22,180 bases of DNA from Psammoneis japonica. Lineage: Eukaryota. A program made the position numbers and the translations under genes. The notes under the pieces are model-generated. The model had not been told where the DNA came from. It did not search any database and saw nothing but the letters and a program-made list of their open reading frames with translations. Of this stretch, positions 1,659-20,218 are shown piece by piece; the first letter of the stretch is position 1, and each line of letters begins with the position of its first letter. The stretch lies in the NCBI GenBank assembly GCA_008632985.1, contig QPGO01000261.1:62001-84180 (forward strand), in the 5' to 3' direction.

Positions 1659-2685
1659 ATGGGAAAAAAGACAGCTGATGCGAGTCTCAAGGGCAAAAAG
1701 CCCATTCATCGAGGCACTTCAAAGACTGCCATTACGTCCAATCCGGGTCGGATCGGGAACAAGCTGAAACGTTCGGAAATGTACGGAAAGTATCTCATGG
1801 AAAAGAAGCGTCAAAAGAACATGGCTCGTCGCCAACGCGCCAAGGAAGCCGAGGCACTCGGAGAAGAAGCTCCGGAAAAACCCACGCCGCGAACTCTTGA
1901 GAACACGCGAGAGTTGGAACCGACGTTGGTCAAACCACACGATGAAGAAGTTGCTGCCGACCAAGCCGAAAGATGAGTTTGCACCCTACTTTAACGATCA
2001 AGTACGGCCCAAAATCCTCATCACCACAAGACCACGTCCGTCGAAACAGCTCTTTTATTTTATTGCAGACTTGCAACGATTCTTTCCGCAAATGCATTTT
2101 TATCCTCGCAAATCTTTTACAGTCAAGGAAATTTGTGGCTTTGCGGCCAATCGCGGCTTTACCCATTTGATTGTGTTGAGTGAAAAGTCCAAGGTATGCA
2201 ACGGCATGACCATATCCCATTTACGTGTGCATGACGGACACGTGACGGCCGGTCCCACGGCCTTTTTCAAGGTGAGCAATGTCATTACGTCGACGGACGT
2301 TCCCAATCACGGTTCGGCCACTAGTCACATTCCCGAATTGGTCTTGAACGGATTTGGAACACGACTTGGACATCGTGTTGGGCGCTTTTTGGGAAGTTTG
2401 TTTCCGCACAATGCGCAGTTTCAGGGACGGCAGGTGGCAACCTTTCACAATCAGCGGGATTTTATTTTTGTGAGACATCATCGATATGTCTTTGAGCCTT
2501 CCAAGAATATTAGCAAAGAAACAAAGCAACCCAAGACCAAGGCGAGGTTGCAAGAATTGGGACCTCGATTTACTCTCAAGCTCCGGTGGATTCAGGAGGG
2601 TACGTTTGATACCATGTTTGGTGAATATGAATGGATTCACAAGCGCAAAGAGATGGACACGACGCGGAGAAAGTTTCACTTGTAA
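1659..2685 (+). CDS. RPF1: Ribosome production factor 1 (Brix domain), with one +1 frameshift
   Basis: ORF 1659-1976 (IGNKLKRSEMY..PRTLENTRE..DEEVAADQAE) joins ORF 1897-2685 (DEFAPYF..PKILITT..PTAFFKVSN..PELVLNGFGTRLGHRVGR..FHNQRDFIFVRHHRYVF..LQELGPRFTLKLRWIQEGTFD..RRKFHL). Removing one A from AAA at 1969-1971 gives ADQAEDEF. Confidence 0.95.
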
Positions 2686-4095
2686 GATTCTAGTGTTGAC
2701 GGTAACTCAGCTGATGATTGTTAATGATCTAGTCTTTGTTAGTTTTTTTAATGTAGTGCTGTAATGCTAAAGAATGTGGACACGAATTGGAAATGACCAC
2801 CAGTTGGATCGCTGTCGTATGTTCGAGATGCCGCCGCCGTCTTGCACCATTTCGTTAAGTCATACGAGACACTGTCTTCTGCCTCGTCTCGTGTCAAGGC
2901 TCGTTCTTGTCCACCAAAACAAAATGCTATGTGCGGCCCACCAATGCGATTCAGGATCTTGCATCATGCTTGTTCCTTCAACTCATTCAAGGAATTCAAC
3001 TTGTGCCCTCCAACCTTGCAGAATGCGGTCCTGCACACAGTTGGAGAGCACTTGTGCTTGACTTGATGGCAGTGGAGGAGATTCTCCGTTGATTGCCTCA
3101 CAGTCATGTCACAGCAAGATTCAAGGGTGGCTGCAGAGTTGCAAATGCTCTGGAGCAAGACACGATGGATTGTTGGGAGGATTGAAAATGTGTCTCGCCG
3201 TTGACAGACACTCAAATTGCAATTGTGGCCCAAAGACAAAAGTGAGAGTTGGGTGGCACTTGGCAAAACAAGCATTGGTGACAATTGTCAAGAGCACAAC
3301 AGTCATGTGGTGCTCCAACCCAAAAAGAGCTCACCTGGAAGGGTGCCACAAAAAAAGTGCAGGAAGGAGTGGAGGGGTGCATCATTTTGCTCTTGCAATG
3401 AAAAACAGAACAACAACAAAAGCAATTGTTCTTTCTGTTTTGCCCTTTCCTTGCTTCCAGGCTGCTGCTCTCATTGTGGCCCAAGCAAGAATGAGCTGCA
3501 GGCACCAAGGTTGCAGGGTTGGTGGGTGGCGGGCTGGTGCAGCTCGCGGCATGCTGCTTCACGCGCCATCAGCCATGCAGCAGGCTGCACAAAGGATGGA
3601 GAGATGATGATGGGCTCCAGCTCTCTGCAACACGCAAGAGGAGCCTCAAGGGTGCTCACAATGAAGCTGCAGTCTCTGGAGGTGAACACTCAAGTTGGCC
3701 AATTTGTGGGGGCTGTGCATCTGACACAGACATCCGAGATGGGGAGCACACCCCCTTTTGCAAGACAGACTGGCATGGACAGGGTGAAGAGATCCGATGA
3801 TCTCTCCTTTGCTCACTTTCTTTCTCCTCCAGTGCATGATTGCCATCTGTCCTAGATGTTGTTAGATTGTCCCAATGCCAGCAGTCTGCAAGGTCATGAG
3901 CAGCAGTGCGCTGTTTTTGTCTTCCTCAATGCAACCACATTTCAACACCCACTGTGTGGTTCGGCGGTGTTTCTCTGTTGAAATCATCGTCTTTGTCACA
4001 GCCTTTTTTCTTTCTTGATTTGTGATCATCACAACCACCATGGAACACAAACCAGTGCTCCATGCAGGATTTTGATTTTTTTTTCCTGAGCAACC

Positions 4096-6239
4096 ATGGT
4101 CAACAAGAACACAGCTGCCATCGATTTGACCAAGATCAAGCCAACATTGGTCAACCTCACACCGGAACATTGCTTGCCCGATGCCCATTGTTTTGCCTGA
4201 ATGAGCTTCACTCAGACAAGACACCTGCTCCTGAAGATCTTCTGGATGAGTTCACTCCTCCCAACCTCAAGAGCAGTGCTGTTGCAACTCTCTTTCACAA
4301 AGTTCTTCAGGAGGATCTCATCATCCCAAAAGCTGCACTGACCAAAGATCTTGCACAGATTGCAGTGCTTGTGGAGAAGGCTGCTCTCTTTGTGGCTGTC
4401 CCTCAAGGTTCTCCAATTCACCTGAACCACACCAATCTTCACAAGGCTGTGATCAAGGCAATCTCAGACAATCAGGACACCACGATGACCCATGTTGGGA
4501 TTGTCTGTCTCCATTTTTATGCTGCTTTTCAATCTTGTGAATGTTGGAATGATGTGTGTGATGCTCCATGCCCAGAACCTTCTGCTGCCCCAAGTTCATC
4601 ACCTTTGCCAGCTGCTGCTGCAGGTTTCACTCCTTGTGACTTTGCCAAGGCCTTGGCTGCTCTGCCTGGTCCAAAAGACTGTGAGAATGCCACAACCAAT
4701 GCACCAAAGAGCTCTTCATCCCCTTCCAAATCTTCTGCCACAACCCTCACCCCATCAAGTGTCCTTTGCACCTTCAACCCAAAAGGATTGCCCACAGATG
4801 CACCAGCGCATTGCCAACACAAAGAAGATGGAAAGGTGATTTTAGGAACTTCACTCACCCGCTGCAAGTCTGGAAACCTCTGCTGTGAAGATGGGCTGAA
4901 TGTCTCATGCTTGCTGGTGGCTCTCTTTTTGTTCATTGTGCTGGATGGGATGCAAAATCCTTCCTGCAGGATCCTCTTGCTTGCAATGACATTTCTCCTC
5001 AAGGAATTGTGCATTGCACACTGCTGCAACTCAACAAGCCACCATGGCATGTGGCACGTGCATGCATCCCCTCTGGTGTTTTATCAAGGATGGCAGCAAT
5101 TGGGGGTTTGCAAGTGGCAATGATCCCACTGATGACCTGCAGCTTCAAATGTGGGGCCCACTTGATCAGATGAAATGGACTGTCTTTCAGTGCATTCAGA
5201 AGGTTGGACTTTTTTCTGCTGACTCCACGTGCCCTGACATTGTTCACCAATGTTGTGGAGATGGACATGCCGCTCTCAAGATGATCCCATTTGATGTTCT
5301 TCCTGTTTGGACAAAGCTTCCATTCAACTCATCACAAGCCACCAGCACCAGAACAACCTTGCTGTTGTCAGCTGCCATGCTCTGTCCCAAGACTTCCTTC
5401 AACTTCAGGCAATCATCTCCAATGTTGATGCATCCCTTTATGATCCCAGTGAGCTTAATGTTTTTCTCAGCAATGCCTGTCATGTTGAACGTCTCCACTG
5501 CAAGACTGCTGAAGCCCATGAAGACAAGAACAAGAAGCGTCAGTTTGCCCAGCAGAAGATTGTTGAGACTGTTGCTGTGCTTCTCAAGGAACCGGATGGT
5601 CCTGCTCTCTGTGTGACTCCTCCCCAAGTGTCCACCACATTGCATGCACAATCAGACCCCTTGCCCACAAGTGAATCCTCCTTTGGTGGCACCCCTCTGC
5701 AGTCTTGATTTGCCAGCTGCTGATGATCCATCTGATCAGCTGACTGATGCTGAGAAACCCTCCATGGAGCTGTCTCCTCCTCCAGTGGAAGTGCCCCCTG
5801 AAACTGTGGAATTCTTTGTCAATGAACACTTGCTGCCATGGAGGTGCCCAGGATGATGAAGCACAGGTGCTGCATGGTGTGTTTCCAAGGCTTGTGTCTG
5901 TGGGCTCAAGGCTGCACCATCCCTTGCACAGAATTGTCCTTGCCTTGTTTGTGGTGGTGACCATTGCTTTGCTGATTGTCTGGTGCCAAACAATGCTGAG
6001 TGCTTGAAATCTCACCTCTCATCCAATTTAGCCAATTTCTTCAATGCAATCAGTGTGCTCAAGCCACATTGCTTGGGGCTGACAAAACCAAAGAGGATGG
6101 CTCTGCTCCCTTGGATTGTTCTTGGGGCCATTGTCACATTCAGATGTGCAATGCCACCCATCCACCACCAATCTGAAACCACCACATTGCCAGCAGGGCA
6201 ACTGTGAAAGAGAGTCCAACCGATTCATCACCTTCCGCT
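4096..6239 (+). mobile_element. Outer Ty1/copia element A, degenerate gag region (left of the nested insertion)
   Basis: A fragmented reading frame starts at ATG ~4096. It includes DIVHQCCGDGHAALKMI and ALSQDFLQLQAII..ELNVFLSNA, resembling diatom copia gag, and a zinc knuckle CLVCGGDHCFADC (CX2CX3HX4C) at 5941-5979. A tentative short LTR-like TGTTG...CAACA lies at 3857-3947. Confidence 0.7.
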
Positions 6240-6488
6240 TGAGCAAATTGTGATGCATCATGTGGAGTCTGGTGTGCTGTGTGCTGTTGCACATCAGACA
6301 TCAGCAACAGTTGTAGCTCAGTCAACTGTTGAGATGTGGTGTTGGAGCAAAACTTGATGGGTCATCCTTCAATGGTGCTCACTTGTTGCACACAGTCGCA
6401 ACAGGCCTTGGAGCATCTTTGGGATTGTTGTTTTGTTGTCATGCCACCACTGTGAGTGGCTGAGCCATCATGCAGCTGGATTTGCTTG
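6240..6488 (+). repeat. LTR 1 of element B
   Basis: Similar to 8980-9229 and 11716-11957. Starts TGAGCAAAT and is followed by a PBS-like motif. Confidence 0.9.
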
Positions 6489-6500
6489 CTTTGTCAGAGC
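6489..6500 (+). promoter_or_regulatory. Primer-binding-site-like motif (second copy at 9230-9241)
   Basis: CTTTGTCAGAGC lies directly after the LTR. It resembles the tRNA-Met PBS TGGTATCAGAGC with TA->TG, but the match is only partial. Confidence 0.55.
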
Positions 6501-6723
6501 CACAGTCCACACTCAAAGGTTTTTTGGTTGACACATGATGACAAGCATGAAAGTTGATGGTTGTGTCTTGATGGCACAGTTCCAATGACAACTGCCGACT
6601 GGCTTGAGGGTGCACACCAATGAGCATTGCCTGGCATCAGCGCATGTGCAAAGCAGTGTTTTGACATGATTCTTCTGACACAATGGCTGCTCTCTCTTGA
6701 TGTTTGATGACTCAGGTTTCACC

Positions 6724-7950
6724 ATGGTGGCTTTGCCTCCAAACCCAATGGAAACAGTCCTCAACTGTAACTGGATCAGTTTTCAGTTGCCTGCTCAGCG
6801 CAATGCTGTCATGACCAATGCTGCTGCATTTGATGGTGTCGTGGACATGAAAGAGTCCAACATTGATGTGCTTGCATTGTCCCACGCAAGGAGGACTGCC
6901 GCTGAAGGGCATTGTCACTTTGGATTGGCTTGAACCCATTGTCTCAAGTCCTCAATCCATTGGGTGCAGGATTTTGAATGTGCAAGCAAAAATCTGACCA
7001 TTGATGGTTTGGATCAGGTGAGGTTCCATGATGCACTGTCTGCCACTTTCACAAGGGCCAAGATTTGCAACCAGATGAGGGAGCAATCCAAGTCTGTTGC
7101 TTGTGAGGCATCTCTTGGACTCTTGGAGAGCAACAAAGGCTTGGGCAAAATGGAGTGCTGCCTTCAAGAACAAGCAAGCAGTGGATCAAGGAGCACCGCA
7201 ACAGCCAGAATGGTCATCTTTGCTGCAAGTCACTGGAGAACCACTGCAAGGGCAAGGGCAATGCTGCCTGTTGCATCTCGGAAGCTGAGCATCCAGAGAG
7301 TGCTCTCTGCAGCAGAAGTGAGCATTCCATGATGTTTGAGATGTTTGTCATCAAGCTTCAGGAGATGTTCAACATTTTTGAGGAAAATGACAAACCCAAG
7401 ATGGAGGCCCAGAAGCTGTGCTTGTCATTTGACAAGGTGCAGCACCAGCAACTGCAGAACACTGTGGAGACCCTGAAGGTGCAGAACAAGTTTGGAGGTG
7501 GGATCACTTTTGCCACTGCATGCAACCATCTTGCCACAAAAGTTGCTGCACTCTCAGAGACAGTTGCACACCATTGTGTGATTTCTTCTCTTGCGTCCGG
7601 AGTCAGCAAGGAAGGTGATTCCATTTGCAATGAAGATGGATCCATTGACACTGGATTTGACAAGAACTGGTGTCAATTTAGCAAGGAAGACAAGAAGAAG
7701 GTTGTGGACAAGTGCTTGTGCCTGGGACTCAAGAAGAAGCCAAGCAACCCAAAGCATCATGCTGCATCCGTCAAGTTGCTCAAGGAGAAGAATCGGAAGC
7801 TGTCATCCCAGCTTGAACAAGTGAACCACACTGTTTCTTCCCTCAGCACTGGCAACAGCACTGACACTGCTGCAGACAATGCTTTGGAAAGAGGCAGCAA
7901 AGGTGGCAACAATGCTGGAGATGTGTTTGGGGGACACCAGAACAAGTTGA
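6724..7950 (+). pseudogene. gag of element B, copy 1 (copy 2 at ~9463-10685)
   Basis: MVALPPNPMETVL..HFGLA*THCLKSSIHWVQDF..KQWIK..SLENHCKGKGNA..MFEMFVIKLQEMFNIFEE..ITFATACNHLA resembles diatom CoDi gag. It contains stops, frameshifts and internal deletions. Confidence 0.8.
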
Positions 7951-7957
7951 TTGCTGT

Positions 7958-8910
7958 GTGATTTTTGACATCAAGTTGGGAGAGAACTTTTGGCGCAAGA
8001 GCAGAATGGTGGTGGGTGGTCACATGACTGATGCCCCATCTGCTGTCACCTGCTCCTTGGTTGTTTCCAGGGATTTGGCAAGGATTGCTCTTGCTCTTGC
8101 TGCACTCAATGACTTGGAAGTGTTTTTGCCTGCGACATCCAGAACACCTGCTTGACAGTGTCATGCCAAGAAAAGACATGGACTCATGCTGGCGAGAGTT
8201 TGGTGGGGAGAGCAGCTCAATTGTGGTGGCATTCAGGGCTTTCTTGGTGGAGACGCTTTGTGATCCAGGGTGCAAGCCCAGTGAGGTGGACCCCAATGTT
8301 TGGATGCAACCCGCAGTGAAGCCAGATGGGTTTGAGCACTGCAAGTGCATCTGGTGCACATGGACAATTTGTTGTCAATCAGTCACAAGCCAATGAATGC
8401 CATGGATGGGGCATCAAGCTAAAATTCAAGCTCAAGGACAACAAGGTGGTGGAACCGCCCCGACTCCTGCTTGGGTGCTCAGTTGGCAAAAATGGACTTA
8501 GCTGACAGCACCACTTGCTGGATGATGTCAGCAGAGGCGCATTTTCAGGCAGCAGTTCAGAATGTTGAAGAGAAGTTGGCCAAGCAAGGGAAGAGATTGA
8601 TGATCAAAGCTTGCGCACCCCTGAGCAGTGGACACAAGCCGGAGCTGGACACTCTGGGTGAACCAGATGCAGAAGGTCTCAACTGCTGCCAAGAGATGAT
8701 TGGCATTTTGGTTTGGGCAGTGGAATTGGGTGGAGTTGATGTCCATCTGGAAGTCTCCATTGTGTCAGCTCACCTTGCCTTGCTGCGCATTGGTCATTTG
8801 GAACAGGCATTGCATGTCTTTGCACATCTCAAACAGGTTCCAAAGCATTGGGTGGCATTTGATCCTCCACATCCGGTCATTGTCAAGACCAGATTTCAGA
8901 AGTGCAATGT
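7958..8910 (+). pseudogene. Copia reverse transcriptase fragment of element B, copy 1
   Basis: IFDIKLGENFWRKSRMVVGGHMT..VVSRDLARIALALAALNDLEVF..AFRAFL..DPNVWMQPAVKPDGFEHCKCI-LVHMDN (YVDD site at 8357-8368)..HKPELD..CCQEMIGILVWAVELGGVDVHLEVS..GHLEQALHVFAHLK. Protease, integrase and RNase H are absent. Confidence 0.92.
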
Positions 8911-8979
8911 GACTTGTGCGCTGGTTGAATTGTGTCCATCAAGTGCATCCTTGACTTGTCAGAAACATTTCAAGAGGAC

Positions 8980-9229
8980 TGAGTAAATTGTGATGTGTCA
9001 TGTGGAGTCTGGTGTGCTGTTGCACATTGGACATCAGTCATTGATGGATGGAGCTCGCTCAGTCAACCATTGTGATGTGGTGTTGGAGGGAAACTTGATG
9101 GGTCATCCTCCAATGGCACTCACTTGTTGCGTGCAGTTGCAACAGGCCTTGGAGCATCTTTGGGATTGTTGTTTTGTTGTCATGCCACCACTTTGAGTGG
9201 CTGAGCCATCATGCAGCTGGATTTGCCTG
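8980..9229 (+). repeat. LTR 2 (central, shared, chimeric) of element B
   Basis: Preceded by the PPT-like CAAGAGGAC and followed by the PBS-like motif. Its 5' part matches LTR 3 and its 3' part matches LTR 1. Confidence 0.9.
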
Positions 9230-10692
9230 CTTTGTCAGAGCCACAGTCCACACTCAAAGGTTTTTGGTTGACACATGATGACAAGCATGAAAGTTGATGG
9301 TTGTGTCTTGATGGCATGTTCCAATGACAACTGCCGACTGGCCTGAGGGTGCACACCAATGAGCATTGCCTGGCATCAGTGCATGTGCAAAGCAGTGTTT
9401 CGACATGATTCTTCTGACACAATGGCTGCTCTCTCTTGATGTTTGATGACTCAGGTTTCACCATGGTGGCTTTGCCTCCAAACCCAATGGAAACAGTCCT
9501 CAACTGCAACTGGATCAGTTTTCAGTTGCCTGCTCAGCGCAATGCTGTCATGACCAATGCTGCTGCATTTGATGGTGTCGTGGACATGAAAGAGTCCAAC
9601 ATTGATGTGCTTGCATTGTCCCACACAAGGAGGACTGCCGCTGAAGGGCATTGTCACTTTGGATTAACTTGAACCCATTGTCTCAAGTCCTCAATCCATT
9701 GGGTGCAGGATTTTGAATGTGCAAGCAAAAATCTGACCATTGATGGTTTGGATCAGGTGAGGTTCCATGATGCACTGTCTGCCACTTTCACAAGGGCCAA
9801 GATTTGCAACCAGATGAGGGAGCAATCCAAGTCTGTTGCTTGTGAGGCATCTCTTGGACTCTTGGAGAGCAACAAAGGCTTGGGCAAAATGGAGTGCTGC
9901 CTTCAAGAACAAGCAAGCAGTGGATCAAGGAGCACCGCAACAGCCAGAACGGTCATCTTTGCTGCAAGTCACTGGAGAACCACTGCAAGGGCAAGGGCAA
10001 TGCTGCCTGTTGCATCTCGGAAGCTGAGCATCCAGAGAGTGCTCTCCACAGCAGAAGTGAGCGTTCCATGATGTTTGAGATGTTTGTCATCAAGCTTCAG
10101 GAGATGTTCAACATTTTTGAGGAAAATGACAAACCCAAGATGGAGGCCTAGAAGCTGTGCTTGTCATTTGACAAGGTGCAGCACCAGCAACTGCAGAACA
10201 CTGTGGAGACCCTGAAGGTGCAGAACAAGTTTGGAGGTGGGATCACTTTTGCCACTGCATGCAACCATCTTGCCACAAAAGTTGCTGCACTCTCAGAGAC
10301 AGTTGCACGCCATTGTGTGATTTCTTCTCTTGCATCCGGAGTCAGCAAGGAAGGTGATTCCATTTGCAATGAAGATGGATCCATTGACACTGGATTTGAC
10401 AAGAACTGGTGTCAATTTAGCAAGGAAGACAAGAAGAAGGTTGTGGACAAGTGCTTGTGCCTGGGACTCAAGAAGAAGCCAAGCAACCCAAAGCATCATG
10501 CTGCATCCGTCAAGTTGCTCAAGGAGAAGAATCGGAAGCTGTCATCCCAGCTTGAACAAGTGAACCACACTTTTCTTCCCTCAGCACTGGCAACAGCACT
10601 GACACTGCAGACAATGCTTTGGAAAGAGGCAGCAAAGGTGGCAACAATGCTGGAGATGTGTTTGGGGGACACCAGAACAAGTTGATTGCTGT

Positions 10693-11648
10693 GTGATTTT
10701 TGACATCAAGTTGGGAGAGAACTTTTGGCGCAAGAGCAGAATGGTGGTGGGTGGTCACATGACTGATGCCCCATCTGCTGTCACCTGCTCCTCAGTTGTT
10801 TCCAGGGATTTGGCAAGGATTGCTCTTGCTCTTGCTGCACTCAATGACTTGGAAGTGTTTGCCTGCGACATCCAGAACACCTGCTTGACAGCATCATGCC
10901 AAGAAAAGACATGGACTCATCCTGGTGAAGAGTTTGGTGGGGAGAGCAGTTCAATTGTGGTGGCATTCAGGGCTTTCTTGGTGGAGATGCTTTGCGATCC
11001 AGGGTGCAAGCCCAATGAGGTGGACCCCGATGTTTGGATGCAACCCGCAGTGAAGCCAGACGGGTTTGAGCACTGCAAGTGCATCTGGTGCACATGGACA
11101 ATTTGTTGTCAATCAGTCACAAGCCAATGAATGCCATGGATGGGGCATCAAGCTAAAATTCAAGCTCAAGGACAACAAGGTGGTGGAACCGCCCCGATTC
11201 CTGCTTGGGTGCTTGGTTGGCAAAAATGGACTTAGCTGACAGCACCATTTGCTGGATGATGTCAGCAGAGGCGCATTTTCAGGCAGCAGTTCAGAATGTT
11301 GAAGAGAAGTTGGCCAAACAAGGGGAGAGATTGCTGATCAAAGCCTGCACTCCCCTGAGCAGTGGACACAAGCCAGAGCTGGACACTCTGGGTGAACCAG
11401 ATGCAGAAGGTCTCAACTGCTGCCAAGAGATGATTGGCATTTTGGTTTGGGCAGTGGAGTTGGGTGGAGTTGATGTCCATCTGGAAGTCTCCATTGTGTC
11501 AGCTCACCTTGCCTTGCTGTGCATTGGTCATTTGGAACAGGCGTTGCATGTCTTTGCACATCTTGGGCAGGTTCCAAAGCATCGGGTGGCATTTGATCCT
11601 CCACACATCCGGTCATCGACAAGACCAGATTCCAGAAGTGCAATGTGA
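10693..11648 (+). pseudogene. Copia reverse transcriptase fragment of element B, copy 2
   Basis: Near-identical to 7958-8910. ACDIQNTCLTA corresponds to the copia DIxNAYL motif, and HMDN is at 11091-11102. Confidence 0.92.
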
Positions 11649-11715
11649 CTTGTGTGCTGGTTGAATTGTGTCCATCAAGTGCATCTTTGACTTGTCAGAA
11701 ACATTTCAAGAGGAC

Positions 11716-11957
11716 TGAGTAAATTGTGATGTGTCATGTGGAGTCTGGTGTGCTGTTGCACATTGGACATCAGTGATGGCTGGAGCTCAGTCAACCGTTG
11801 TGATGTGGTGTTGAAGGGAAACTTGATGGGTCATCCTCCAATGGCACTCACTTGTTGCAAGCAGTTGCAACAGGCCTCAGAGCATCTTTGGAAACATTGC
11901 GTCATCATCACACTGGCGCTGTGAGTGGCTGAGCCATCATGCAGCTGGATTTGCTCA
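11716..11957 (+). repeat. LTR 3 of element B
   Basis: Starts TGAGTAAAT after CAAGAGGAC, ends ATTTGCTCA, and is followed by the TSD CGCT. Confidence 0.9.
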
Positions 11958-11961
11958 CGCT

Positions 11962-14050
11962 GAACTGCCTCTTTCCCACGCATCATTTGCTGACATTCTT
12001 TTGGATTTGAAGAAGTCAAGCACTCCAAACATTGCAAAGATTCCTGATGATGACACTGACATTGTGAAACAGGGGAGGGATGACACTCACCTTGCTTCCA
12101 TTCAACATGATCCATCTCTCCCACTGTCCAATGACACCCACCAAGACTTTGAACATTTTGACATGTCCCAACATCAACACTTGTCTCCATTGAATGCTGC
12201 TTGCATCTCCCCCATCCTTTCTCTGCTAGATCCTCCTGCCCAGTTTCCAACTGTGGATGCTCTGGTTCTCCCCATCAACCACATGCTCAGTGATTCTGTG
12301 ACACATCATGCACAGATTGACATGGGTGCTTGGGTCTCATGTGCAGGGCACAAGAACCTTCTCCACGCTTGTGGACCTTTTGGTCCTGACAACCCATGTC
12401 CCTTGAAGATGTTGCTTGCAGTTGAAGGATCTGATGCAGTGCCTCATGGCTTTGGTTGCTTGCAAGCACCTGCAGACAATGCAGACAGCTTTCTCCTTGT
12501 GTGCACCTTTTGCCATCCAAGTCTGCATTCTACCTTGATCAATGAATGTGATTTTGGATGAGCTCCTGGTTTGCCAAAATTAGAAAACATTGCATCTGAA
12601 GTCATCCAGAAGACATGTGCTGACAGTGCTTGCATGTGTGCAGCAACAACTGCTGCCAATGCACCCCCAGCAGTTGCTCATGGTGTTCTCTGGCATGGCA
12701 AAGTTTCCACCCAAGCGTTGGTCCCTCCTTCCATGACACCCACACTCCCAACACCACTGGCATCTCTTTGTGATTCTGCCACTGATTTTGAAGATGCATG
12801 TCCTTCCATGACACCCACACTCCCAACACCCCCAGCATCTCTTTGTGATTCTGCCACTGATTTTGAAGATGCACGTCAGTGTGCAGCATTTTATGTTGAT
12901 GTTCAACAAGAATCTGGAACAGACCCCTTGGTCAACACTGAGCTCTTTTTGATGCAATGCCACTCTACACCATCACCCACACCAGCCCTCCATGTTTCAA
13001 CTCCTGTTTGGTCATTGAAGGTTGAGACTGAACATCTTCCATGGCACCAGCATCTTGGTCATCCAAGTGATCATCACTTGTGCAATGCTCACAAGTGCAT
13101 CAAAGGTGTCCCAAAGTTCCCCCATGAATGATCAGCTCTCAATGCTTGTCCAATGTGCATTCAAGCAAAACAGGCCTCTGAGAATGAGGATTGTGCATCT
13201 GACTGTCTTGGGTTTGATGGCGAAACTTGTTAGATGGCAGTGTGTGTGCACCATTCCTGCGCATTTCATGGTGCAGCACAGGTCTCAAAAAAGCCAGCCC
13301 TTTCAAGTGGCTTTGCCAATTCCTGGACTGACATTTGCCAAATTTTATGACAAACATGCATTTGTGGACCAAGGTGGAGAATTGCACAAGAGTTCAAAAG
13401 TTTGTGACCACTTCCAACACAAAATCTAGCATGACTTGTGTCCTGCAGGTGCTGGAACATCCAGTCAATGTGGACCTGTTGAATGCTCACATTTGACTGT
13501 TGAGAATGCAGTTCATGCATTTTTGATTGTTGCCAATCTTCCAATTTGATTTTGGCCCTGTGCTTTTTGTCACTGCCTGCAAATCAAGAGTGCTGCTCCC
13601 ACCAAAGATCAAGATGCAGCACCCATCACACTGTTGCCACTGGCAAGGTTGATGACTTCACTGCTCTGAAGACTTTTAGCTGCCAAGCATGGGCACTGCA
13701 ACCATCAGAATTGTCCAGCTCAATTCAAGACAAATTCCAAGAAAGGTGTCTTCCTTGGTCATCTCCCCAACACTTTGAAGAATGTCTCATGGTGAGATCC
13801 AGTGACTGACAAGGTCAAAACAGTGAAAAACGTCCACTTTGATGAGGGCATGAATGACTTGCCATCAGATCACCTCTGCCCAATGCTGCTCATTTGCAAT
13901 GCATGGAAAATGGCCAAGAATGTCTTCCAGCTGAAACCCAGGAGACCACGGTTCCCATGTTCACATCACCCTTGAATCCTTTTGCCAAGACTGTTGCATG
14001 TGCCATGAAATGCCCTCCAAAGGATCCCACCTGTGGTTTTGTGGTGAAAT
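11962..14050 (+). mobile_element. Outer copia element A, degenerate protease and integrase (truncated before RT)
   Basis: Protease HAQIDMGAWVSC (DTG->DMG at 12319-12327). GAG-pre-integrase WHQHLGHPS..GVPKF and CPMCIQAK. Integrase core AFVDQGGELH, SSQCGPVEC and FWPCAF. SH3-like LKTFSCQAW..KGVFLGH..VHFDEGMNDLP. Confidence 0.88.
12727..12873 (+). repeat. 75-bp in-frame tandem duplication (2 units)
   Basis: Units start at 12727 and 12802 and encode PSMTPTLPTP(L/P)ASLCDSATDFEDA. Confidence 0.95.
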
Positions 14051-14364
14051 GCAAACTGAGTCTGGTGTGAAATGGCGGAAGCTCAGCTCCCTGATGTGAA
14101 AGAAGCAATGCGGTCCACCAAGATCAAATGGTTGTGTGATCCCAGGCCAGTCATGAGCAAAAAGGTGCAGCACCCTGGTCTGCTGTCAGGCACAAGACAT
14201 GCCAGTCTGTGTGGAGCTCCAGGTGGCTCAGACTCAGGGGTGAGTCAGCCAGGTGGTGCAGTTGCTCTCCATGGGTGGGCTGGTGGCAGCACTCTGGCAT
14301 GCATGGAAGCAAGCTGCAAGCCATGCCCCATGGCAGCGCAAGGGCTGGCCAATGCCCAAATTGA

Positions 14365-15400
14365 TCAACGCACACATTGACTCACTCTTTGGCTGAAAAG
14401 GGGCCCAAAACACTGAGGTGGCTCCTGTTTTCCAATGAAGCAACAATGTCTTTCCTTCAACACATCCAGCTTTCTTAAATTTCCCATCTTCCAACTTGTT
14501 CCAACACACTCCTGCTGCTTGCACTGATGATGTTCTGCACCCTGACATTCTGGTTCTGCATTTCCTTGTGGGATGTCAACATTGTGCCCATCAGGTGCAT
14601 CAGTTGTTTTGATGCTTTCATCATGGCGACCATTTGGTTGACAAAAATGTGGACCAAGCTGACTGCCAAATGCACTCATGATCTTGCACACTTGATCCAC
14701 AAAATGCTTCATGTGATCAGCCACCAAGCCAAGTTTTCTCTTGCACAGCATCACTGTGCAGACCATTTGCTGTCATTAGCTCCATTGCCCAGCCATTGCT
14801 GACAACTCTGCTGCCCAATTCAAAGAACTCCAGATTGTGGCAAGTCCATTCTTTCTTGGGCCTTGCTTCAATGGTTTCATGTTTGAAGAATTGTGCCAAC
14901 TTTAAAGCATCACCGACAACTCCATTGTTGTCTTGCACTGACCCAAATTGAAACCTCTTCTTGTCCATGGGCCAATTGCTGGCATGTTCTGCAAGAGGTT
15001 CACATGTCTCAGCAATCCATGCCACATGTGGGACAACCTGATGTCAACATCCTGCCCACACAGAAGACATCATTTGTGGTCAATGCAAAATGAAATTTGT
15101 TGCAAAGACATCCTGCGATCATTGCCATGGCACATTCTGTCAGGTTGGCCTCATGGCAGAATCCTGGCTTGTGACATTCAAGTCTTTGGATGCAGGCTTG
15201 ACCTCCAATGAGCTGCCAACATTCCTTGGTTTTCTGTGCTGCTCTTGCATGGCCCTGAACTGTGGCCATTGTCTCCTCTCCATTGTCAAATGAGGAGATC
15301 ATCAGTGCAGCAGCCAGTGGGCAGGAATCCTGTGAGGCTTCCCACACTTGCCTTGGATGCTTGTGCAGCTGTGGGTTGCCTGCAAAGAGTCGACTGTGCA
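14365..15400 (-). pseudogene. Unknown protein family relic, copy B
   Basis: Paralogous to 15440-16690: AAQKTKECWQLIGG / MIAGCLCNKFHFAL / SGCPTCGMD / FQFGSVQDNNGVVGDALKLAQFFK..EARPKKEW..LEFFEL / VQAAGVCWNKLEDG. Confidence 0.6.
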
Positions 15401-15439
15401 ACCTTCAAACCAGTGACACAACAATGTGATGTGATGCAA

Positions 15440-16690
15440 TTGCACCCAATCAACAATCCTGATGTGCCAAATGATTCACACTCCAAAGAGTGAGAACAAC
15501 AAAACAGATGTGTGTCCAATTGGCAACAATGTTTTTCTTTGATGTCAACAAGTCACCACATCTTTTGGCATGGCAGAAGCTTCAATGTCTTTTCTTCAAC
15601 ATGTCGGGGTTTCTCAAGTCCCCATCTAACAACTTGTTCCAACACACTCTTGCTGCTTGCATCAATGATCTGGCATTTACATCTTGGCTTTGCAGCAACG
15701 TTTGGGATTAAAATTTCCCCAAACGATCCTTCCCATGTTGCGAGCACTTCAGTTCTATCAACATGGCAATTCAGCAATTCACACACCAGTGCTCCACACC
15801 TTTGTCATTGAAGTTAAGAAGCACATCGAACTCATTTGTCATGCATCCCACCACATCAACAAAGCTCTTCACATGGGCACCATGTGAGCCATCCTTGCAC
15901 TTCATGATTGTGCGGACCCATGTCACTGACAAAGCCTGTCATCCATTCATCAATTCTCCATGGATGCAGCTCACAGAATTCCATCTTGCAACAGCCCCAC
16001 CTTTGTCTGGGCCTCAGTTCAACCACTTTACACTGGAAAAATTGTGCCAGCATCAAAGTGTTGAAGACAACTCTGCTGTCATCTCTCACCAAACCAAACC
16101 GCCAATGTGTCTCATGGTCATGTTGGTTGGGTGCACACTCCATCAAGAGCTCACATGCCCCACATGCATCCATGCTGCAGGCAGGGCAGCTCACTGTTGA
16201 CCATTCACTGAGTTGGTTGATGTCTTCCTTGTCAAGGGCAAGTCTGAACTTGTTGCCCCTTGCTCCTGCCATCATGTTCTCATCAAACTTCTTCTGAGGA
16301 AACACACCATCATTGTCACAACAGCAAGTGCACACCCAATGCAAGGCTTTGCCTCCAACCATTTGCCAATGCTCCTTGGTCTTGTGTGCCTCTCTCACAC
16401 ACTCCACCATTTTGCACCACACCTGTGTTCCTTCTCCAAACATGGAGATCATTGGTGCAGTGGCAGACATGTGCTCACATGCATCTCTTGTCCTCTCCTT
16501 CCTGCAGCCATGTGTCTTGCACACTGTCTTAAATCTTTCTGTCCACAGCTCGTGCCACTTTGCTTCAAGCTCCTTTTTTCTCATCTGGCACTCCGGTGAA
16601 GTGATTCCATCCAAACTTTCTGTCCTCAGCAAATTCCAGCAACAACAACCTGAAATCTGCCAACTCCCATCAGACATGCAGGTCACCAGG
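15440..16690 (-). pseudogene. Unknown protein family relic, copy A
   Basis: EAHKTKEHWQMVGG / MMAGARGNKFRLAL / VSCPACSMD / WRFGLVRDDSRVVFNTLMLAQFFQ..ELRPRQRW..MEFCEL / MQAARVCWNKLLDG..CFVVLTLWS. Confidence 0.6.
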
Positions 16691-17103
16691 TGTTGTCATG
16701 CACATGCTTTCCACAAACAAGCTGTGATCTTCCAGTGCCTTCTGGCAGTCTTGATCTTGGCATTTCTTTTTTTTTGGCTTCCAGCAGTTTGCTCAACACC
16801 TCAAACTTTTCCAAATGCAGCCTCAGCCACTGTCATGAGAGTGCATTGTGCACCTCCTAGAAATCTTGCACTCTGCCTGGCTCATCAGGCAGCAAATTGG
16901 TGTCGTGAACAGCAGTTGACATCATGGTCATGGCCAAATCAACAATTGTGATTGGTTGAGCCATGTGGATGAACACAAAAACAAAACCAAAATTCCATCT
17001 TTAAAGTGCTGCTGCACTTCCACCCCGCAACTCCGGCAACAAGCTGGCCCACACCCCCAGCACACTGACAGTGCGGCAGGAGCATGTGGCAATTGGCCAA
17101 GAT

Positions 17104-17127
17104 CGGCATCGTCCGCAGACGATGCCG
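17104..17127. repeat. Perfect 10-bp inverted repeat (hairpin)
   Basis: CGGCATCGTC-CGCA-GACGATGCCG. Confidence 0.85.
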
Positions 17128-17253
17128 TGCCAAAGTGACATGTGAATGAACACATCTTCTGGACTCAACACATCATTGCAACTTCTGGGTTGCAGGGTTC
17201 TTTCACCCACACACATCAGCATTCTTGTGTCACAGACAGGAGAAACTCTCCTG

Positions 17254-17853
17254 TCACACTTGACAGCCCATGATGGCTTGTTTGAACTTTTGAAGCTTCT
17301 TGCCCTTCAATGGCTCAGTCATGAAGTCTTGAACCATGTCATTGGCAGGACATCACTCCACTCTGAGACTGCCTTTCTTGAGCTGGTTGGTTGCAAAAAA
17401 AAAGTTGACTGTTGAGTGCTCTTGACCTCTTGCATGCACTCTTGCGCCCGCCAGCTTCCAGAAACATGGTGCTCTGTTGAACTGCCTCACTTTCTTTTCC
17501 TTGTGGCAGCCTGACTTGTCTGCTGCTGGCACCACCATGTCAATGTTGTTCTCAATGTTAGCCTTTTTGCACTGAAGCTGTTGCAAGCCATGTCTTCAAT
17601 GGACCTTGCCAGATGTGTGCCTTGAGTGCACTCCTTCTGCATGCACCTCACACAATCTTTTCCTTGACATCTTCAAAGGTTGCATTCCAAGAATTGCTGC
17701 TCAGTGATGAAGGGCAAAACTTCATCTCAGATTGAAAGCCTTTCTTGGCAGTGGTCTTCTCCTTGCTTGAGAGGACCTGTGACTTTTGTCACCCTTTCTG
17801 CGACCACATCATTGGCCTTGGTTGTTGCTTCTGCTGCTTCTTCTTCTGCTCAT
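17254..17853 (-). mobile_element. Mini copia element C: gag N-terminus joined to RNase H C-terminus
   Basis: ATG at 17853 (MSRRRSSRSNNQGQ), then EMKFCP..ATFEDVKEKIV (gag-like start). After ~17480 it reads SAMFLEAGGRKSACKRSRALN..FFATNQLKKGSLRVE*CPANDMVQDFMTEPLKGKKLQKFKQAIMG, the copia RNase H end (KHIDIR/ADxxTKPL region). A 9-bp-stem hairpin at 17235-17255 overlaps the stop. Confidence 0.78.
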
Positions 17854-18079
17854 GTTGCAGGCCCTCTGTGATTTGTTAACTGCAGGTGGCAAAAAATTGA
17901 CAAGCACCAACACAGTTGTGATGTTGACTCTTTGGGGTGAATGTTGAACCAGCAAGTCAATGGCACCAAACCAGAATTCCACACGGCTTCCTGTGCTCTT
18001 GTTGTTCTTGCTTTGGCTGCTTGTGTGGCTGTGGGTTGCCTTCAAAGCCGTCTGTGCAAATTTCAAACTTGGAATGTAA

Positions 18080-18290
18080 CAGGTGCCCAAAGATGCCAAT
18101 GCAATGCAATCATGTTTTCTTGACAAACCAAATGAATTGCTCCAAAGATTGAGAACAACAAAACAGACAGAATCAGACCAGTGATGGTGCATTTTTCCTC
18201 TCAAAGAGTTGCAGCATCCACCATGCAAGGAGCAACAACATCTTTCCTTCCACTTGTTCCAACAAGACTTCACACAAATGTCATGTCAAC
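18080..18290 (-). pseudogene. Unknown protein family relic, C-terminal fragment (copy C)
   Basis: SCWNKWKERCC..CFVVLNLWS. The DNA CTCCAAAGA..GAGAACAACAAAACAGA is shared between 18140-18167 and 15481-15508. Confidence 0.55.
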
Positions 18291-19796
18291 ATCAACCTTT
18301 CTCTTTCTATGAACACATGGGAAGAGGAGTCATTGGTTTGCAAATTGCTGAAATGAAGCTCAAAACACATGAGGACACTCATGATTCAGGCAAAACAGCC
18401 TAAAACCCAAAAAACCAAGAGCAGGCGAGGGCTGTTGTATTTTCTGCTGTTGGTCAGATCTCATCACTTCCTTTTTGATCTAAAGGCCCTTCACACAAAG
18501 AGAAAATGGCCAGCTCATTGCTGCCACCTGGCACTGTTGCCATGATGAGCACTTGCAATGGCACAGATGTGCCGGAGGCCAGTGCTGCAGCTGCTGGGGA
18601 TCTGCCACTCTGACTGCAATGAAGAGCAAACTCACCACCACCAGAGATAATTTGCCCTTGTTGCTTTGCCACAGACCAGAGAGGACATGCCATTGTGGTG
18701 CACACAAAACATGTCCAAAATCACCTTTGCAAGTCTCCAGCCCACAAACTCACATGTGAGCCACCCTCAACTTGCCTCAACAATGCACCCATGCACAGCC
18801 ACAGAGCTGATTTGGTTGAACAAGCCCTTTGATGAAGATGCAATCACAGAAGTCATTGTTGCTCCACAGCAACAAGAGGTGACAAACAATCTGTCAGCCA
18901 CACTTTTCCCCTGCTGAGCAAAGAAAAGTGCAGGCATTCTTGGCTCACAGCCCAGAGAGTGTGCTGTCATTTTCTTTCATGTCAAATGTTGAGTCAGACA
19001 TCCAGTCCAAAGACCATTTCTTCTGGTGCATTTTCCATGGCATCACTTTTTCTGTCTTTTAAGCTGTGCCAATCCTTGTTGCCAGAGACCTTGGGAGTGA
19101 GATGGACTTGGATTCCTGCAACAAAATGATCAGCCTGCAGCATGAACCTTGCATTGCTGAGTGCTTTACATCCTGAGGCTGAGGACTTGTGGGAGGAGCA
19201 GGTTGGGAGCACATCATCTGTCCTGATGCAGCAAGTCAGTTGTGCTGGACATTGAGTTGTGCAAGGACAATGACATTGGGTGTGGCCAGATTGCAATAAA
19301 GTAGCAAGGACCATAATAGCAGAGAAGTATGGAATCGTTCTCTTCTTTTCAATTTATGGTGAATGTAAACAGTTCGTTGTGTTTGCGAGTTCGTCGAAAG
19401 GTTCTTCAATCAAAGTGTACCCACGGCAGTAGTTCCGAGCTTAGCGACTTTCTCTACATAGCTCTGGCGTTGCAAGGACCTGCGGAAAGTATAGTTCAAA
19501 GTTCCGTTGGCTCGTATACAAGCGCGATTTTTAAAAGTGGTATTCTGAAAGCTAATAAAAAAAGGTAGCCGTCCTGAATGCTGTGCCGAGAAGAAAGATG
19601 CTTTAGATACTGCCTCTAAAAGTTGAAATTAGAAAGGTTGAAGAGTCTTTCATTAGGCCATTCTCTCTTCACCCTCTAGTGTTGAGTTAAGCTCAAAAGC
19701 TAGCTCTAGACAGAGAGACAGAGGAGCAGGTGTCGATCGGTCGATCGATTACTTTAGCGTTGCTACGCATCCGCACTGCAGCGCCGGCGTAACAGG

Positions 19797-20180
19797 TTAG
19801 CCACACAATGTGAACTCTACACAAGCTTTCCAAGCTCGAGTCAATACCCGGAATCTCTTGCTACCCCCGGTTCTCTTCGACGTACTGTAATGCATTAGCT
19901 TGTCTTTCAGTACAGTGCATCCCAATCTGATCGGTCTGGCCATAGTATCTCCACCAAATAATATGCCGGGTGCTCCGTCCGAGACTTGCACCAATTGATC
20001 TCCTTTACAGCTGTGGTGCGAATTTATTTTATTGACTTTCAGTATTATCCAAAGATGTGGCAGCACAGCAAATTTCCTGGCACCGACGCATCATAAAGGT
20101 ATTAAGATCCACAACACCGTAATAACACTCTCGAAAACAAGAGGACAGCAAAACCAAAGCATTCGAAGAGCTATGTGTAA
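19797..20180 (-). pseudogene. Degenerate partial duplicate of the TIR/C-terminus of the adjacent gene
   Basis: THSSSNALVLLSSCFRECYYGVVDLNTFMMRR vs AHTCTHAVIILSPNFRESRYCVMELNTFMMRR; LPHLW vs LSYLW; LKDKL..YVEENR vs LKDELVRYVEEHR. Contains stops and frameshifts. Confidence 0.85.
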
Positions 20181-20218
20181 CTTTCATTTTCACCAGCTCT
20201 GCGGTGCTATCCTTATCA

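Follow-up and report, generated by a model that had tools for sequence, protein, structure and literature searches.

Background

RIP, a process of ascomycete fungi, permanently inactivates copies of mobile elements through dense transitions at a single dinucleotide; it is copy-specific, can proceed to saturation, and leaves relics that escape similarity searches. RIP converts CpA to TpA (C:G>T:A), raising TpA and AT content and creating stop codons. APOBEC3 edits the cDNA of retroviruses and LTR retrotransposons, leaving hypermutation that is element-confined, varies from integrant to integrant and is fossilised in the genome. Such editing converts C to U on minus-strand DNA, which yields G>A on one strand together with positional gradients. 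Hyperediting of retroelement RNA by ADARs, which to our knowledge are animal enzymes, produces dense clusters in which A is read as G, with a 3' G favoured. The tRNA adenosine deaminases TadA/ADAT have A34 as their natural target, next to an invariant U33 on its 5' side; the context recognised by bacterial TadA is U-A-C-G. We know of no natural DNA adenine deaminase.

The locus described here resembles RIP in all the respects named, with none of the 122 ORFs of the affected block reaching the Pfam cut-off, but the change is the opposite one, as an earlier note on this DNA had claimed: TpA is destroyed (A:T>G:C), GC content is unchanged and no new type of stop codon arises. The RID-related DNMT4 of diatoms, which has no known function (PMC9998398), is a cytosine enzyme. 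From APOBEC3 editing the locus differs in that A:T>G:C changes fall at TpA, equally on both strands and without a gradient. It departs from ADAR hyperediting in that T>C is as common as A>G, whereas RNA editing fixes only A>G of the sense strand, and in that TAG ranks with the contexts that are hit least.

A block depleted of TpA and CpG

The window (the whole 22,180-nt stretch of Psammoneis japonica DNA analysed) contains a block at 2930..19296 (16,367 nt), bounded by dense TA and CG positions, in which TpA and CpG have been converted to TpG and CpA. The depletion is real and extreme. We counted 51 TA (o/e 0.05) and 132 CG (o/e 0.14), with 1853 CA (o/e 1.83) and 1923 TG (o/e 1.87), an excess of ~1.85-fold, at a GC content of 0.484; 200 mononucleotide shuffles of the block averaged 1086 TA (sd 24, minimum 1008). 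The earlier note's estimate of about 50 TA in 16.4 kb was therefore accurate, as was its statement that the leftmost segment, 2930..3852, has none. This segment retains 15 CG and is only ~75% depleted of that dinucleotide (o/e 0.25), and its ORFs lack any Pfam family. Compared with the flanks, the block has 34 fewer TA and 48 fewer CG per kb, and 35 more CA and 52 more TG. Taken together, the four YpR dinucleotides have kept their frequency (0.2419 in the block versus 0.2368 in the flanks), so TA and CG were converted rather than lost. Where TA is more frequent within the block, CG tends to be rarer (rho -0.49 to -0.77), which none of the models considered here predicts.

The block lies between two host genes of normal composition, which encode a Brix-domain protein (1768..2685, + strand; Pfam PF04427, E 5.6e-28) and a TIR-domain protein (20219..22180, - strand; Pfam TIR_2, E 9.6e-11), the ORF of the latter extending beyond the window. 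TA and CG o/e are 0.44 and 1.04 in the left flank (1-2929) and 0.65 and 0.95 in the right (19297-22180). The intervening non-coding flanks, with 13 TA and 13 CG in 244 nt (2686..2929) and 60 TA and 42 CG in 922 nt (19297..20218), are unaffected (1,166 nt; TA o/e 0.80, CG 0.98), so the flanks are normal, as had been claimed, and the edges fall at the block of transposable-element (TE) DNA. Both edges are sharp, within ~30 bp. On the left, the final flank TA and CG are at 2928 and 2902 and no further TA occurs before 3853; on the right, TA is dense again from 19297 and CG from 19336, with zero CG between 18573 and 19336. A general neutral bias, under which TpA and CpG would be hypermutable genome-wide and the effect seen only where selection is absent, would fit the finding that the coding flanks, too, are short of TA (o/e 0.47). 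It is nevertheless very improbable, given the composition of the adjoining non-coding DNA, the abruptness of the switch, and the spread of TA loss from 2% to 64% among copies of one family in the same samples (see below).

Systematic misreading of the modified bases of silenced DNA, in sequencing or assembly, is a remote explanation. The sole run with this sequence, public DNA run X1, has no platform on record and may be the same data as the window's assembly, but its k-mer contigs (word depth ~100) match stretches of 1-2.5 kb with 0 differences (4212-5435, 5409-6477, 14472-17007 and 17663-18741). The same signature and neighbour bias are also present in contigs from several unrelated metagenome assemblies, and the copia relic described next shows ordinary decay in addition, including transversions and multi-step changes.

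Copia relics and tandem units

The clearest element in the block is a Ty1/copia gag-protease-integrase relic at 11953..14046 on the + strand (phmmer best E 5.6e-46; tblastn E 4.7e-74), whose relatives bear RVT_2, SH3_retrovirus and gag_pre-integrs. Running directly into it is a partial third copy (11716..11955, + strand), possibly LTR-like, of the first ~240 nt of a tandem unit. The two complete units of this 2.74-kb repeat, A (6240..8979) and B (8980..11715), both on the + strand, share 95.7% identity over 2,995 nt; the partial copy is 85.7% identical to A and 92.4% to B, with its differences from them concentrated in YpR dinucleotides. Unit A contains a faint copia RT-like trace (7994-8125, E 0.34). 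Unit B contains an RT-like trace (10729-10884; tblastn E 0.01), a Pfam RVT_2 match at E 0.031 (10603-11127) and a marginal RNase H-region trace (11421-11594), with reversal-aware scores of 74 (control maximum 72.5) and 79.5 (control maximum 72). A marginal second copia gag/protease-like trace lies at 15888..16199 on the + strand (reversal-aware score 96.5, control maximum 72; absent from plain tblastn at E<=1e-4), and a copia-like trace on weak evidence at 5562..5885 on the - strand (81, control maximum 72). Of the three copia elements on both strands that the earlier note had proposed, one clear + strand relic thus stands; what remains is a set of faint copia-like traces, most of them likewise on the + strand.

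Direction of change in the relic

We polarised the relic on 219 alignment columns that intact relatives conserve, and found ancestral TA replaced by TG at some sites and by CA at others on one and the same strand, as originally noticed. A single transition at TA accounts for 16 of the 66 columns in which the residue was replaced (A>G in 10 and T>C in 6, read on the coding strand); the others comprise 15 changes from CG, 11 other transitions, 12 transversions and 12 multi-change columns. None of nine conserved Tyr is kept (four TGY, three CAY, one TGA and one TCC), and only one of 13 Arg (four His, four Cys, one Gln and three Lys); other conserved residues are kept at 8/8 (Phe), 4/4 (Trp), 6/6 (Ser), 5/5 (Gln) and 9/10 (Lys). 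Permitting reversion of TG/CA lifts the alignment scores of the relic, for example from 182 to 237.5, and one paralogous contig retains TA or CG at positions that are CA or TG in the window.

Intact copies are not TA-free: relatives have a Tyr content of 2.5-4.5%, and a scan over 367 kb of related loci yielded no 600-nt segment with TA o/e <0.12. Selection for TA avoidance within the elements, such as escape from a TA-cutting nuclease or from TA-targeting insertions, would have parallels in the dinucleotide avoidance known in viruses and phages. We find it hardly credible here, as the destruction of conserved Tyr shows that the affected copies are not a replicating lineage, and intact relatives keep theirs.

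A related copia family

The signature recurs half finished in other, environmental diatom DNA, namely in a related copia family of 33 non-redundant copies (4,513 columns) at metagenome loci from few samples; the protein cluster of one relative bears the label Cylindrotheca fusiformis. Transitions affect 10.6-10.9% of TA positions versus 3.1-4.5% of the remaining A/T positions, on a majority-rule polarisation that may mis-call hypermutable sites. Individual copies have lost between 3/138 and 102/160 of their TA (2% to 64%) at similar background divergence, with 26 of the 33 copies below 30%. Copies were hit independently: those heavily hit do not form a clade, and doubly hit sites show 128 same versus 83 different outcomes (nine listed pairs among the five heaviest copies besides L070 and L076). 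The two strands are affected equally, with an A>G to T>C ratio of 329:313 on one strand, and along the family elements we found neither a positional gradient (Spearman p 0.21-0.84) nor, in runs tests over whole elements, strand coordination (combined p 0.95). Conserved Tyr columns changed to Cys or His in 8/36 cases at loci with TA o/e <0.45 versus 3/256 at loci with >=0.60 (p=3e-6).

Across copies, loss of TA is only weakly correlated with loss of CG (rho 0.41, p 0.018), so TA erasure is no simple by-product of CpG methylation; TA loss is also correlated with other transitions (rho 0.50). Some copies have lost 60-64% of TA with 18% of CG, and others 2-8% of TA with 12-24% of CG. Deamination of 5mC accounts for the CG>TG/CA arm of the block, which is TE-restricted, strand-symmetric and faster at WCG than at SCG, but it cannot remove TpA, and in the family the two arms run independently, the TA arm having gone about three times further than the CG arm in some copies.

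Neighbour-base specificity

TA loss depends on the neighbouring base, being far greater at T-A-Y than at T-A-R. The 51 residual TA in the block comprise 1 RTAY, 18 mixed and 32 YTAR sites, a distribution that departs from all nulls tried (p<=5e-10). A two-strand multiplicative model fits them (chi2 2.9 on 6 df), consistent with independent hits on each strand; with the ancestral TA baseline borrowed from relatives, its modelled per-strand survival is 0.80 for TAA, 0.38 for TAG, 0.09 for TAC and 0.084 for TAT. The seven heaviest family copies, picked post hoc with rates already seen, show A>G per strand at 204/634 TAY versus 74/466 TAR (odds ratio 2.5, p=5e-10), and the remaining 26 at 216/2582 versus 86/1892.

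These data bear on whether error-prone repair of 5mC-derived T:G mismatches in methylated heterochromatin (non-canonical MMR, Pol eta-like) could have mutated nearby A:T pairs. Such a by-product would suit the common sharp borders of TA and CG depletion in the window, the fact that both changes are transitions, and the weak correlation of the two losses across copies. The hotspots of Pol eta are, however, WA (AA and TA), and AA/TT shows no depletion (block 1.14, relatives 1.02), so that the Pol eta-like agent suggested in the earlier note fits poorly. TA loss also varies 10- to 30-fold at similar CG loss (L019, TA 3/138 and CG 18/150; L051, TA 102/160 and CG 30/167), and in L064 TA falls inside the element with CG alike on either side. 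Together with the LTR-like repeats described below, these observations make the by-product improbable.

Repeats and timing

In L051, the two LTR-like repeats, of 201 nt each, are distinguished by 13 nt, of which 12 lie in YpR dinucleotides, with 0 other transitions; this suggests that the element was hit while very young. Polarised by five outgroup copies, the differences comprise 8 TA losses versus 2 CG losses, as a by-product of CpG methylation would not predict, and one CA/TG double difference is traced to TA. T>C accounts for 5/5 changes in one repeat and A>G for 3/3 in the other (chance ~0.016). Strand coordination of this kind is expected of a processive single-strand deaminase, but is seen only in these repeats. 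When tandem unit A is aligned with unit B, 76 of 2,725 positions differ, including 10 CA<->TG doubles, where CG decay alone would give ~3-5 (a hand estimate), and 4 single TA differences. As background transitions alone would give an estimated ~8 of the latter, the window by itself is weak evidence of TA loss after duplication.

The differences between LTRs and the independence of copies would also be expected if finished double-stranded cDNA had been edited before integration. On such an account, extrachromosomal retrotransposon DNA was edited at TpA on both strands, by an APOBEC3-like logic, and integrants arrived variably hypermutated. This would explain the copy-specific intensity at similar background divergence, the early hit on L051, the match of the edges to the TE block with no spill-over into the non-coding flanks (1,166 nt), and, as predicted, the sparing of non-TE DNA. 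Single-stranded reverse-transcription intermediates should, however, give strand bias and gradients, and neither appears in the near-equal A>G and T>C of relic and family or along the elements. A 16-kb nest of several relics and a tandem array is saturated throughout, whereas most family copies have lost <30% of TA; CA<->TG doubles are in surplus between the tandem units, and TA loss grows with both age proxies, other transitions and CG loss. We regard pre-integration editing as unlikely, though deserving more weight than the other alternatives.

Discussion

Our preferred reading, to which we assign a probability of about 0.55, is that the block consists of dead Ty1/copia copies, nested or arrayed, that underwent CpG decay and, separately, strand-symmetric A:T>G:C hypermutation of TpA in double-stranded DNA. 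Diatom TEs are CpG-methylated, and the CG arm would therefore be the ordinary decay of CpG to TpG/CpA expected from 5mC deamination. In the TA arm, TpA becomes TpG or CpA, an A:T pair turning into G:C with either strand equally likely to be hit, and the A of 5'-T-A-Y-3' (equivalently the T of 5'-R-T-A-3') is strongly preferred. The substrate would be single TE copies as double-stranded DNA, once both LTRs exist and most likely in the chromosome; hypermutation halts at the TE border and can near completion. The process that the earlier note termed region-targeted may in fact be copy-targeted.

As to the chemistry, it appears most likely that an enzyme deaminates the adenine of TpA to hypoxanthine, which is read as G, although a mutagenic modification of the T in TpA would be equally compatible with the sequence data. 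TadA/ADAT and the TadA-derived laboratory adenine base editors offer a possible lead in that their target context resembles the T-A-Y preference found here; TadA/ADAT are, however, RNA enzymes.

The pattern suggests a DNA mutation process directed at TA, of which our literature searches gave no description. Its consequence, and possibly its role in defence, would be the permanent inactivation of element copies: all Tyr codons would be turned into codons for Cys or His, and signals of the TATA and AATAAA type would be lost through TpA erasure, which, unlike RIP, would make no premature stop codon.

Extent and boundaries of the TpA-poor block

The block (window positions 2930-19296; 16,367 nt) contains 51 TA, an observed/expected ratio (o/e) of 0.05, against an expectation of 1,086 +/- 24 from mononucleotide shuffles, and 132 CG (o/e 0.14); CA and TG are in excess, with 1,853 (o/e 1.83) and 1,923 (o/e 1.87) occurrences respectively. 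TA is entirely missing from the block's first 923 nt. GC content is 0.484 in the block versus 0.481 and 0.473 in the two flanks, which have TA o/e values of 0.44 and 0.65 and a CG o/e of about 1.0. Both edges are sharp: the final TA of the left flank lies at 2928 and its final CG at 2902, and on the right dense TA returns from 19297 and CG from 19336. A count by eye in the earlier note had given about 50 TA, with CpG scarce, TG/CA in excess and normal flanks, and our counts bear this out. A genome-wide neutral bias is an unlikely explanation, as the non-coding DNA adjoining the block (1,166 nt) has a TA o/e of 0.80 and a CG o/e of 0.98.

TA, CG, CA and TG, the four YpR dinucleotides, have an unchanged combined frequency, at 0.2419 in the block versus 0.2368 in the flanks. 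Per kb, the block has lost 34 TA and 48 CG and gained 35 CA and 52 TG; losses are balanced by gains, as predicted for conversion by single transitions. TA and CG counts per bin vary inversely along the block (Spearman -0.49, -0.77 and -0.71 for 1-, 1.5- and 2-kb bins). Per kb there are 2.2 TA and 10 CG in the left half, and 4.2 TA and 5.7 CG in the right half.

Contigs built from the public DNA sequencing run X1 (word depth about 100) match the block with 0 differences over four stretches of 1.1-2.5 kb. The platform of X1 is not on record and the assembly itself may derive from this run; even so, exact k-mer contigs at this depth argue against a base-calling artefact. Two further runs, X2 and X3, have no cover in the block and are not counted as evidence; no RNA run was among those listed as containing the sequence. 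Just outside the left edge, the stretch 2738-2869 also occurs in X1 as a second, diverged version (depth 64 of 220-294), which is the sole version in X2; the junction region may thus have an allele or a paralogue.

Content of the block and its neighbours

Of the block's 122 ORFs, not one passes the Pfam cut-off, so erased relics of this kind escape domain searches; nor does any long frame read with X at stops match a Pfam family. The only copia-type Pfam hints are three weak ones (RVT_2, gag_pre-integrs and SH3_retrovirus, E 0.03-0.07). The frame at 11827-14799, read with X at stops, nevertheless matches 181 proteins at E <= 1e-3 (best E 5.6e-46). The long matches are Ty1/copia polyproteins, which carry RVT_2, SH3_retrovirus and gag_pre-integrs, and one relative belongs to a protein cluster labelled as from the diatom Cylindrotheca fusiformis. 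By homology to polyproteins with the order gag, pre-integrase zinc finger, integrase and SH3-like domain, the substrate is identifiable as a Ty1/copia retrotransposon, of which a gag-protease-integrase relic lies at 11953-14046 on the plus strand (tblastn E 4.7e-74). Its gag part includes a 75-bp tandem duplication (12726-12877, 95% identity).

Upstream of the relic sits a 2.74-kb tandem repeat with faint RT-like traces, comprising unit A (6240-8979), unit B (8980-11715) and a third, partial copy (11716-11955). Other copia-like traces, two of them on the minus strand, are marginal in a reversal-aware scan, in which TG/CA may revert; scoring was penalised, as looser scoring let a reversed-query control reach 180. 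Of the three copia elements on both strands described in the earlier note, therefore, the plus-strand relic stands and the remainder are faint or marginal traces. The block's families are multi-copy, given that many X1 contigs match it at 80-95% likeness; 1,511 contigs match at >= 80%. Summed contig depth at 3492-4155 and 16772-17435 is about 3,000, versus about 100 for exactly matching contigs, which indicates that both segments derive from high-copy repeats.

The flanks hold ordinary genes with LRR/Roc, Brix and TIR domains (Pfam). The block is placed between the LRR/Roc gene (3-1159) and the TIR-domain gene (20219-22180), both immune-receptor-like in architecture; the former contains 3-4 tandem 84-bp units (531-954, about 80% alike) corresponding to 28-residue LRR_6 repeats.

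Direction of change in the copia relic

We aligned the relic to its relatives and tabulated substitutions, as had been proposed, over 219 columns, those at which no fewer than 8 relatives reach an agreement of at least 60%. None of nine conserved Tyr is retained (4 TGY, 3 CAY, 1 TGA, 1 TCC) and only one of 13 conserved Arg (4 His, 4 Cys, 1 Gln, 3 Lys), whereas other residues persist: Phe 8/8, Trp 4/4, Ser 6/6, Gln 5/5 and Lys 9/10. A single transition at an ancestral TA accounts for 16 of the 66 replaced columns (coding strand: 10 A>G, 6 T>C), and a single transition at an ancestral CG for a further 15 (8 G>A, 7 C>T); the remainder comprise 11 other transitions, 12 transversions and 12 columns that need more than one change. 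As the relatives contain 2.5-4.5% Tyr, these losses indicate that the ancestors had TA, and that TA>TG and TA>CA both occurred along one strand, in agreement with the earlier note. This rules out editing of sense RNA alone. Two other readings, that the block was already TA-free when acquired horizontally and that selection favoured the avoidance of TA, are rejected because conserved Tyr codons were destroyed.

Dependence on neighbouring bases

The 51 residual TA comprise 1 RTAY, 32 YTAR and 18 mixed contexts, a distribution unlike that of the flanks, of the relatives or of new TA arising from TG/CA (P <= 5e-10). A model in which the two strands are hit independently of each other, with the rate set by the base 3' of A, gives a good fit (chi-squared 2.9, 6 df), with modelled per-strand survival of 0.80 for TAA, 0.38 for TAG, 0.09 for TAC and 0.084 for TAT. 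Modelled survival of CG is lower beside W (0.26-0.33) than beside S (0.55-0.59). AA/TT is not depleted, its symmetrised o/e being 1.14 in the block versus 1.02 in related copia loci. A after A has thus been spared, unlike in Pol eta-type WA mutagenesis, and this speaks against polymerase error of that type; the Pol eta-like error-prone repair that the earlier note had listed among possible agents fits poorly.

Related copia loci show a graded series

A scan of metagenome contigs with the alignment of relatives yielded 80 copia loci (367 kb in total). No 600-nt window in these loci has a TA o/e below 0.12; the block is therefore extreme, and its relatives are not equally TA-free. The loci nonetheless form a graded series in which those low in TA are poor in RTAY (rho 0.46, P = 1.7e-5). 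After removal of near-duplicates (61 clusters), Tyr>Cys/His replacements at conserved Tyr columns number 8/36 in low-TA loci versus 3/256 where TA o/e is at least 0.60 (P = 3e-6).

About 48 of the loci represent one family, of which 33 copies were kept after 95% de-duplication and 4,513 columns polarised by majority rule. Transitions affect 10.9% of T and 10.6% of A at TA positions, 14.2% of C and 10.8% of G at CG positions, and 3.1-4.5% of other positions; A>G and T>C at TA are nearly equal (329 vs 313). Loss of TA per copy ranges from 3/138 (locus L019) to 102/160 (L051), that of CG from 12 to 45%, and other transitions from 1.4 to 9.6%. L051 and L064 have lost 60-64% of TA and just 18% of CG, and conversely L019, L018 and L060 have lost 2-8% of TA and 12-24% of CG, so that the two losses are separable (rho 0.41). 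The preference for a pyrimidine after TA recurs in the family: the seven copies with the heaviest loss have 204/634 T-A-Y versus 74/466 T-A-R sites hit (odds ratio 2.5, P = 5e-10), and the remaining copies 216/2582 versus 86/1892.

The heavy copies were hit independently. They are not mutually closer than to light copies at non-YpR sites, in pairwise comparisons sites hit in both members are about as frequent as the product expectation (e.g. 55 observed vs 45.9), and outcomes at such sites are about 60:40 same versus different. No gradient with position along the element was found in three heavily hit copies (Spearman P = 0.84, 0.45 and 0.21). Both outcomes are intermixed along whole elements, over which runs tests for strand coordination are non-significant, and heterogeneity of A>G:T>C among 25 copies is marginal (P = 0.06), with L058 showing 1 A>G and 10 T>C. 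L064 (1-8046) is a second case of a TE-bounded drop in TA: the element, which occupies the first 4 kb, has a TA o/e of 0.27-0.37 and the sequence beyond it 0.6-0.8, with CG o/e similar on both sides.

Repeats within elements place the change on DNA

A pair of 201-nt direct, LTR-like repeats (2457-2657 and 10566-10766 of L051) brackets the element in that locus. They differ by 13 mismatches, of which 12 lie in YpR, none is another transition and one is a transversion. Polarised by five homologous copies, the differences include five ancestral TA lost in the 5' repeat (all T>C) and three in the 3' repeat (all A>G), and one CA/TG double from a TA lost differently in each repeat; the single decayed CG site became TG in the 5' and CA in the 3' repeat (two losses). 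These differences indicate that TA was erased on DNA, after both repeats existed, and far faster there than CG decay or background change. The strand-skewed outcomes in these repeats and in L058 may be the trace of one-strand events.

Units A and B of the window, both erased, are 97.2% identical, with 76 differences over 2,725 aligned positions; 45 of the differences fall in YpR columns (21 CG singles, 4 TA singles and 10 CA<->TG doubles). The doubles are in modest excess over the 3-5 estimated from CG alone (retained plus single CG counts); the 4 TA singles are uninformative on TA loss, as background transitions are estimated to create as many.

Comparison with known systems

The closest systems are RIP, decay of 5-methylcytosine (5mC), APOBEC and ADAR, each of which differs in chemistry, strand pattern or both. 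Fungal RIP changes C:G to T:A, mainly CpA>TpA, and leaves TpA in excess; it acts before meiosis, through a RID/DNMT4-type protein, on both copies of duplicated DNA, with the mutations of one event on one strand of a copy. The block shows the opposite, as the earlier note had recognised: TpA o/e is 0.05 and CpA/TpG 1.85, and the polarised changes in the relic and L051 are TA>TG/CA. As to duplication, block sequences are multi-copy and both tandem units are erased, a comparison that covers multi-copy DNA only; as to one-strand action, the L051 repeats show 5/5 T>C in one and 3/3 A>G in the other, and runs tests over whole elements are non-significant.

APOBEC-type editing of cDNA yields G>A alone, confined to the plus strand, and a gradient along the element. 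Here, A>G and T>C are similarly frequent on the same strand (10:6 in the relic, 329:313 in the family) and the three heavily hit copies show no such gradient. The same ratios set the pattern apart from ADAR editing fixed by retrotransposition, which gives sense A>G only. The CG losses, by comparison, resemble 5mC decay, being about equal on the two strands and confined to the element (CG o/e 0.14 inside versus 0.98 outside). Diatom TEs are described as CpG-methylated in two reports (PMC9998398, PMC2806351), and the loss of CpG appears, as earlier suggested, consistent with 5mC deamination.

Mechanism and implications

The change converts A:T to G:C at TpA in double-stranded DNA of TEs. It is copy-restricted, strand-symmetric and neighbour-dependent, can be told apart from CpG decay and can approach saturation. 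Adenine deamination at T-A-Y would produce exactly the pattern seen, with a putative DNA adenine deaminase as agent. A mutagenic modification of T in R-T-A would leave the same pattern, from which the two are indistinguishable. The target of TadA is U-A-C-G, which the T-A-Y preference may recall by analogy.

Editing of the finished cDNA before integration is a serious rival as to timing. We prefer action in situ, on the integrated copy, because both strands are hit alike, no gradient is seen, a 16-kb nest is saturated uniformly and TA loss increases with proxies of age. We give a probability of a little over one in three to the full reading: that diatoms have a natural genome defence in which an enzyme acting on DNA at TpA hypermutates individual retrotransposon copies, changing TA to TG/CA on either strand until the copies are dead. 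The enzyme would be a DNA adenine deaminase whose T-A-Y preference is TadA-like, or would modify thymine mutagenically, and the system would be an A:T-directed counterpart of RIP.

Full-text literature searches turned up no account of TpA being erased from the DNA of TEs. We rate the target, TpA and its A:T pair, as new, and hypermutation of mobile DNA as already known; to our knowledge the latter has been described for cytosine only (RIP, 5mC decay, APOBEC), and we know of no described natural agent directed at the A:T pair of TpA in DNA; existing adenine base editors are products of laboratory evolution.

As TAA and TAG are nearly absent, the block has long spurious ORFs in all six frames, and gene callers are likely to predict spurious genes there; one such ORF (4026-5123) encodes 365 aa that match no Pfam family. 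In such genomes, dating by LTR divergence would be misled, as would dinucleotide-based tests for foreign DNA. A DNA adenine deaminase behind TpA erasure, if true, would be categorically new. If an enzyme is behind the signature, this would be genome defence of a new kind, and the enzyme a candidate for a natural A:T>G:C editor of DNA.
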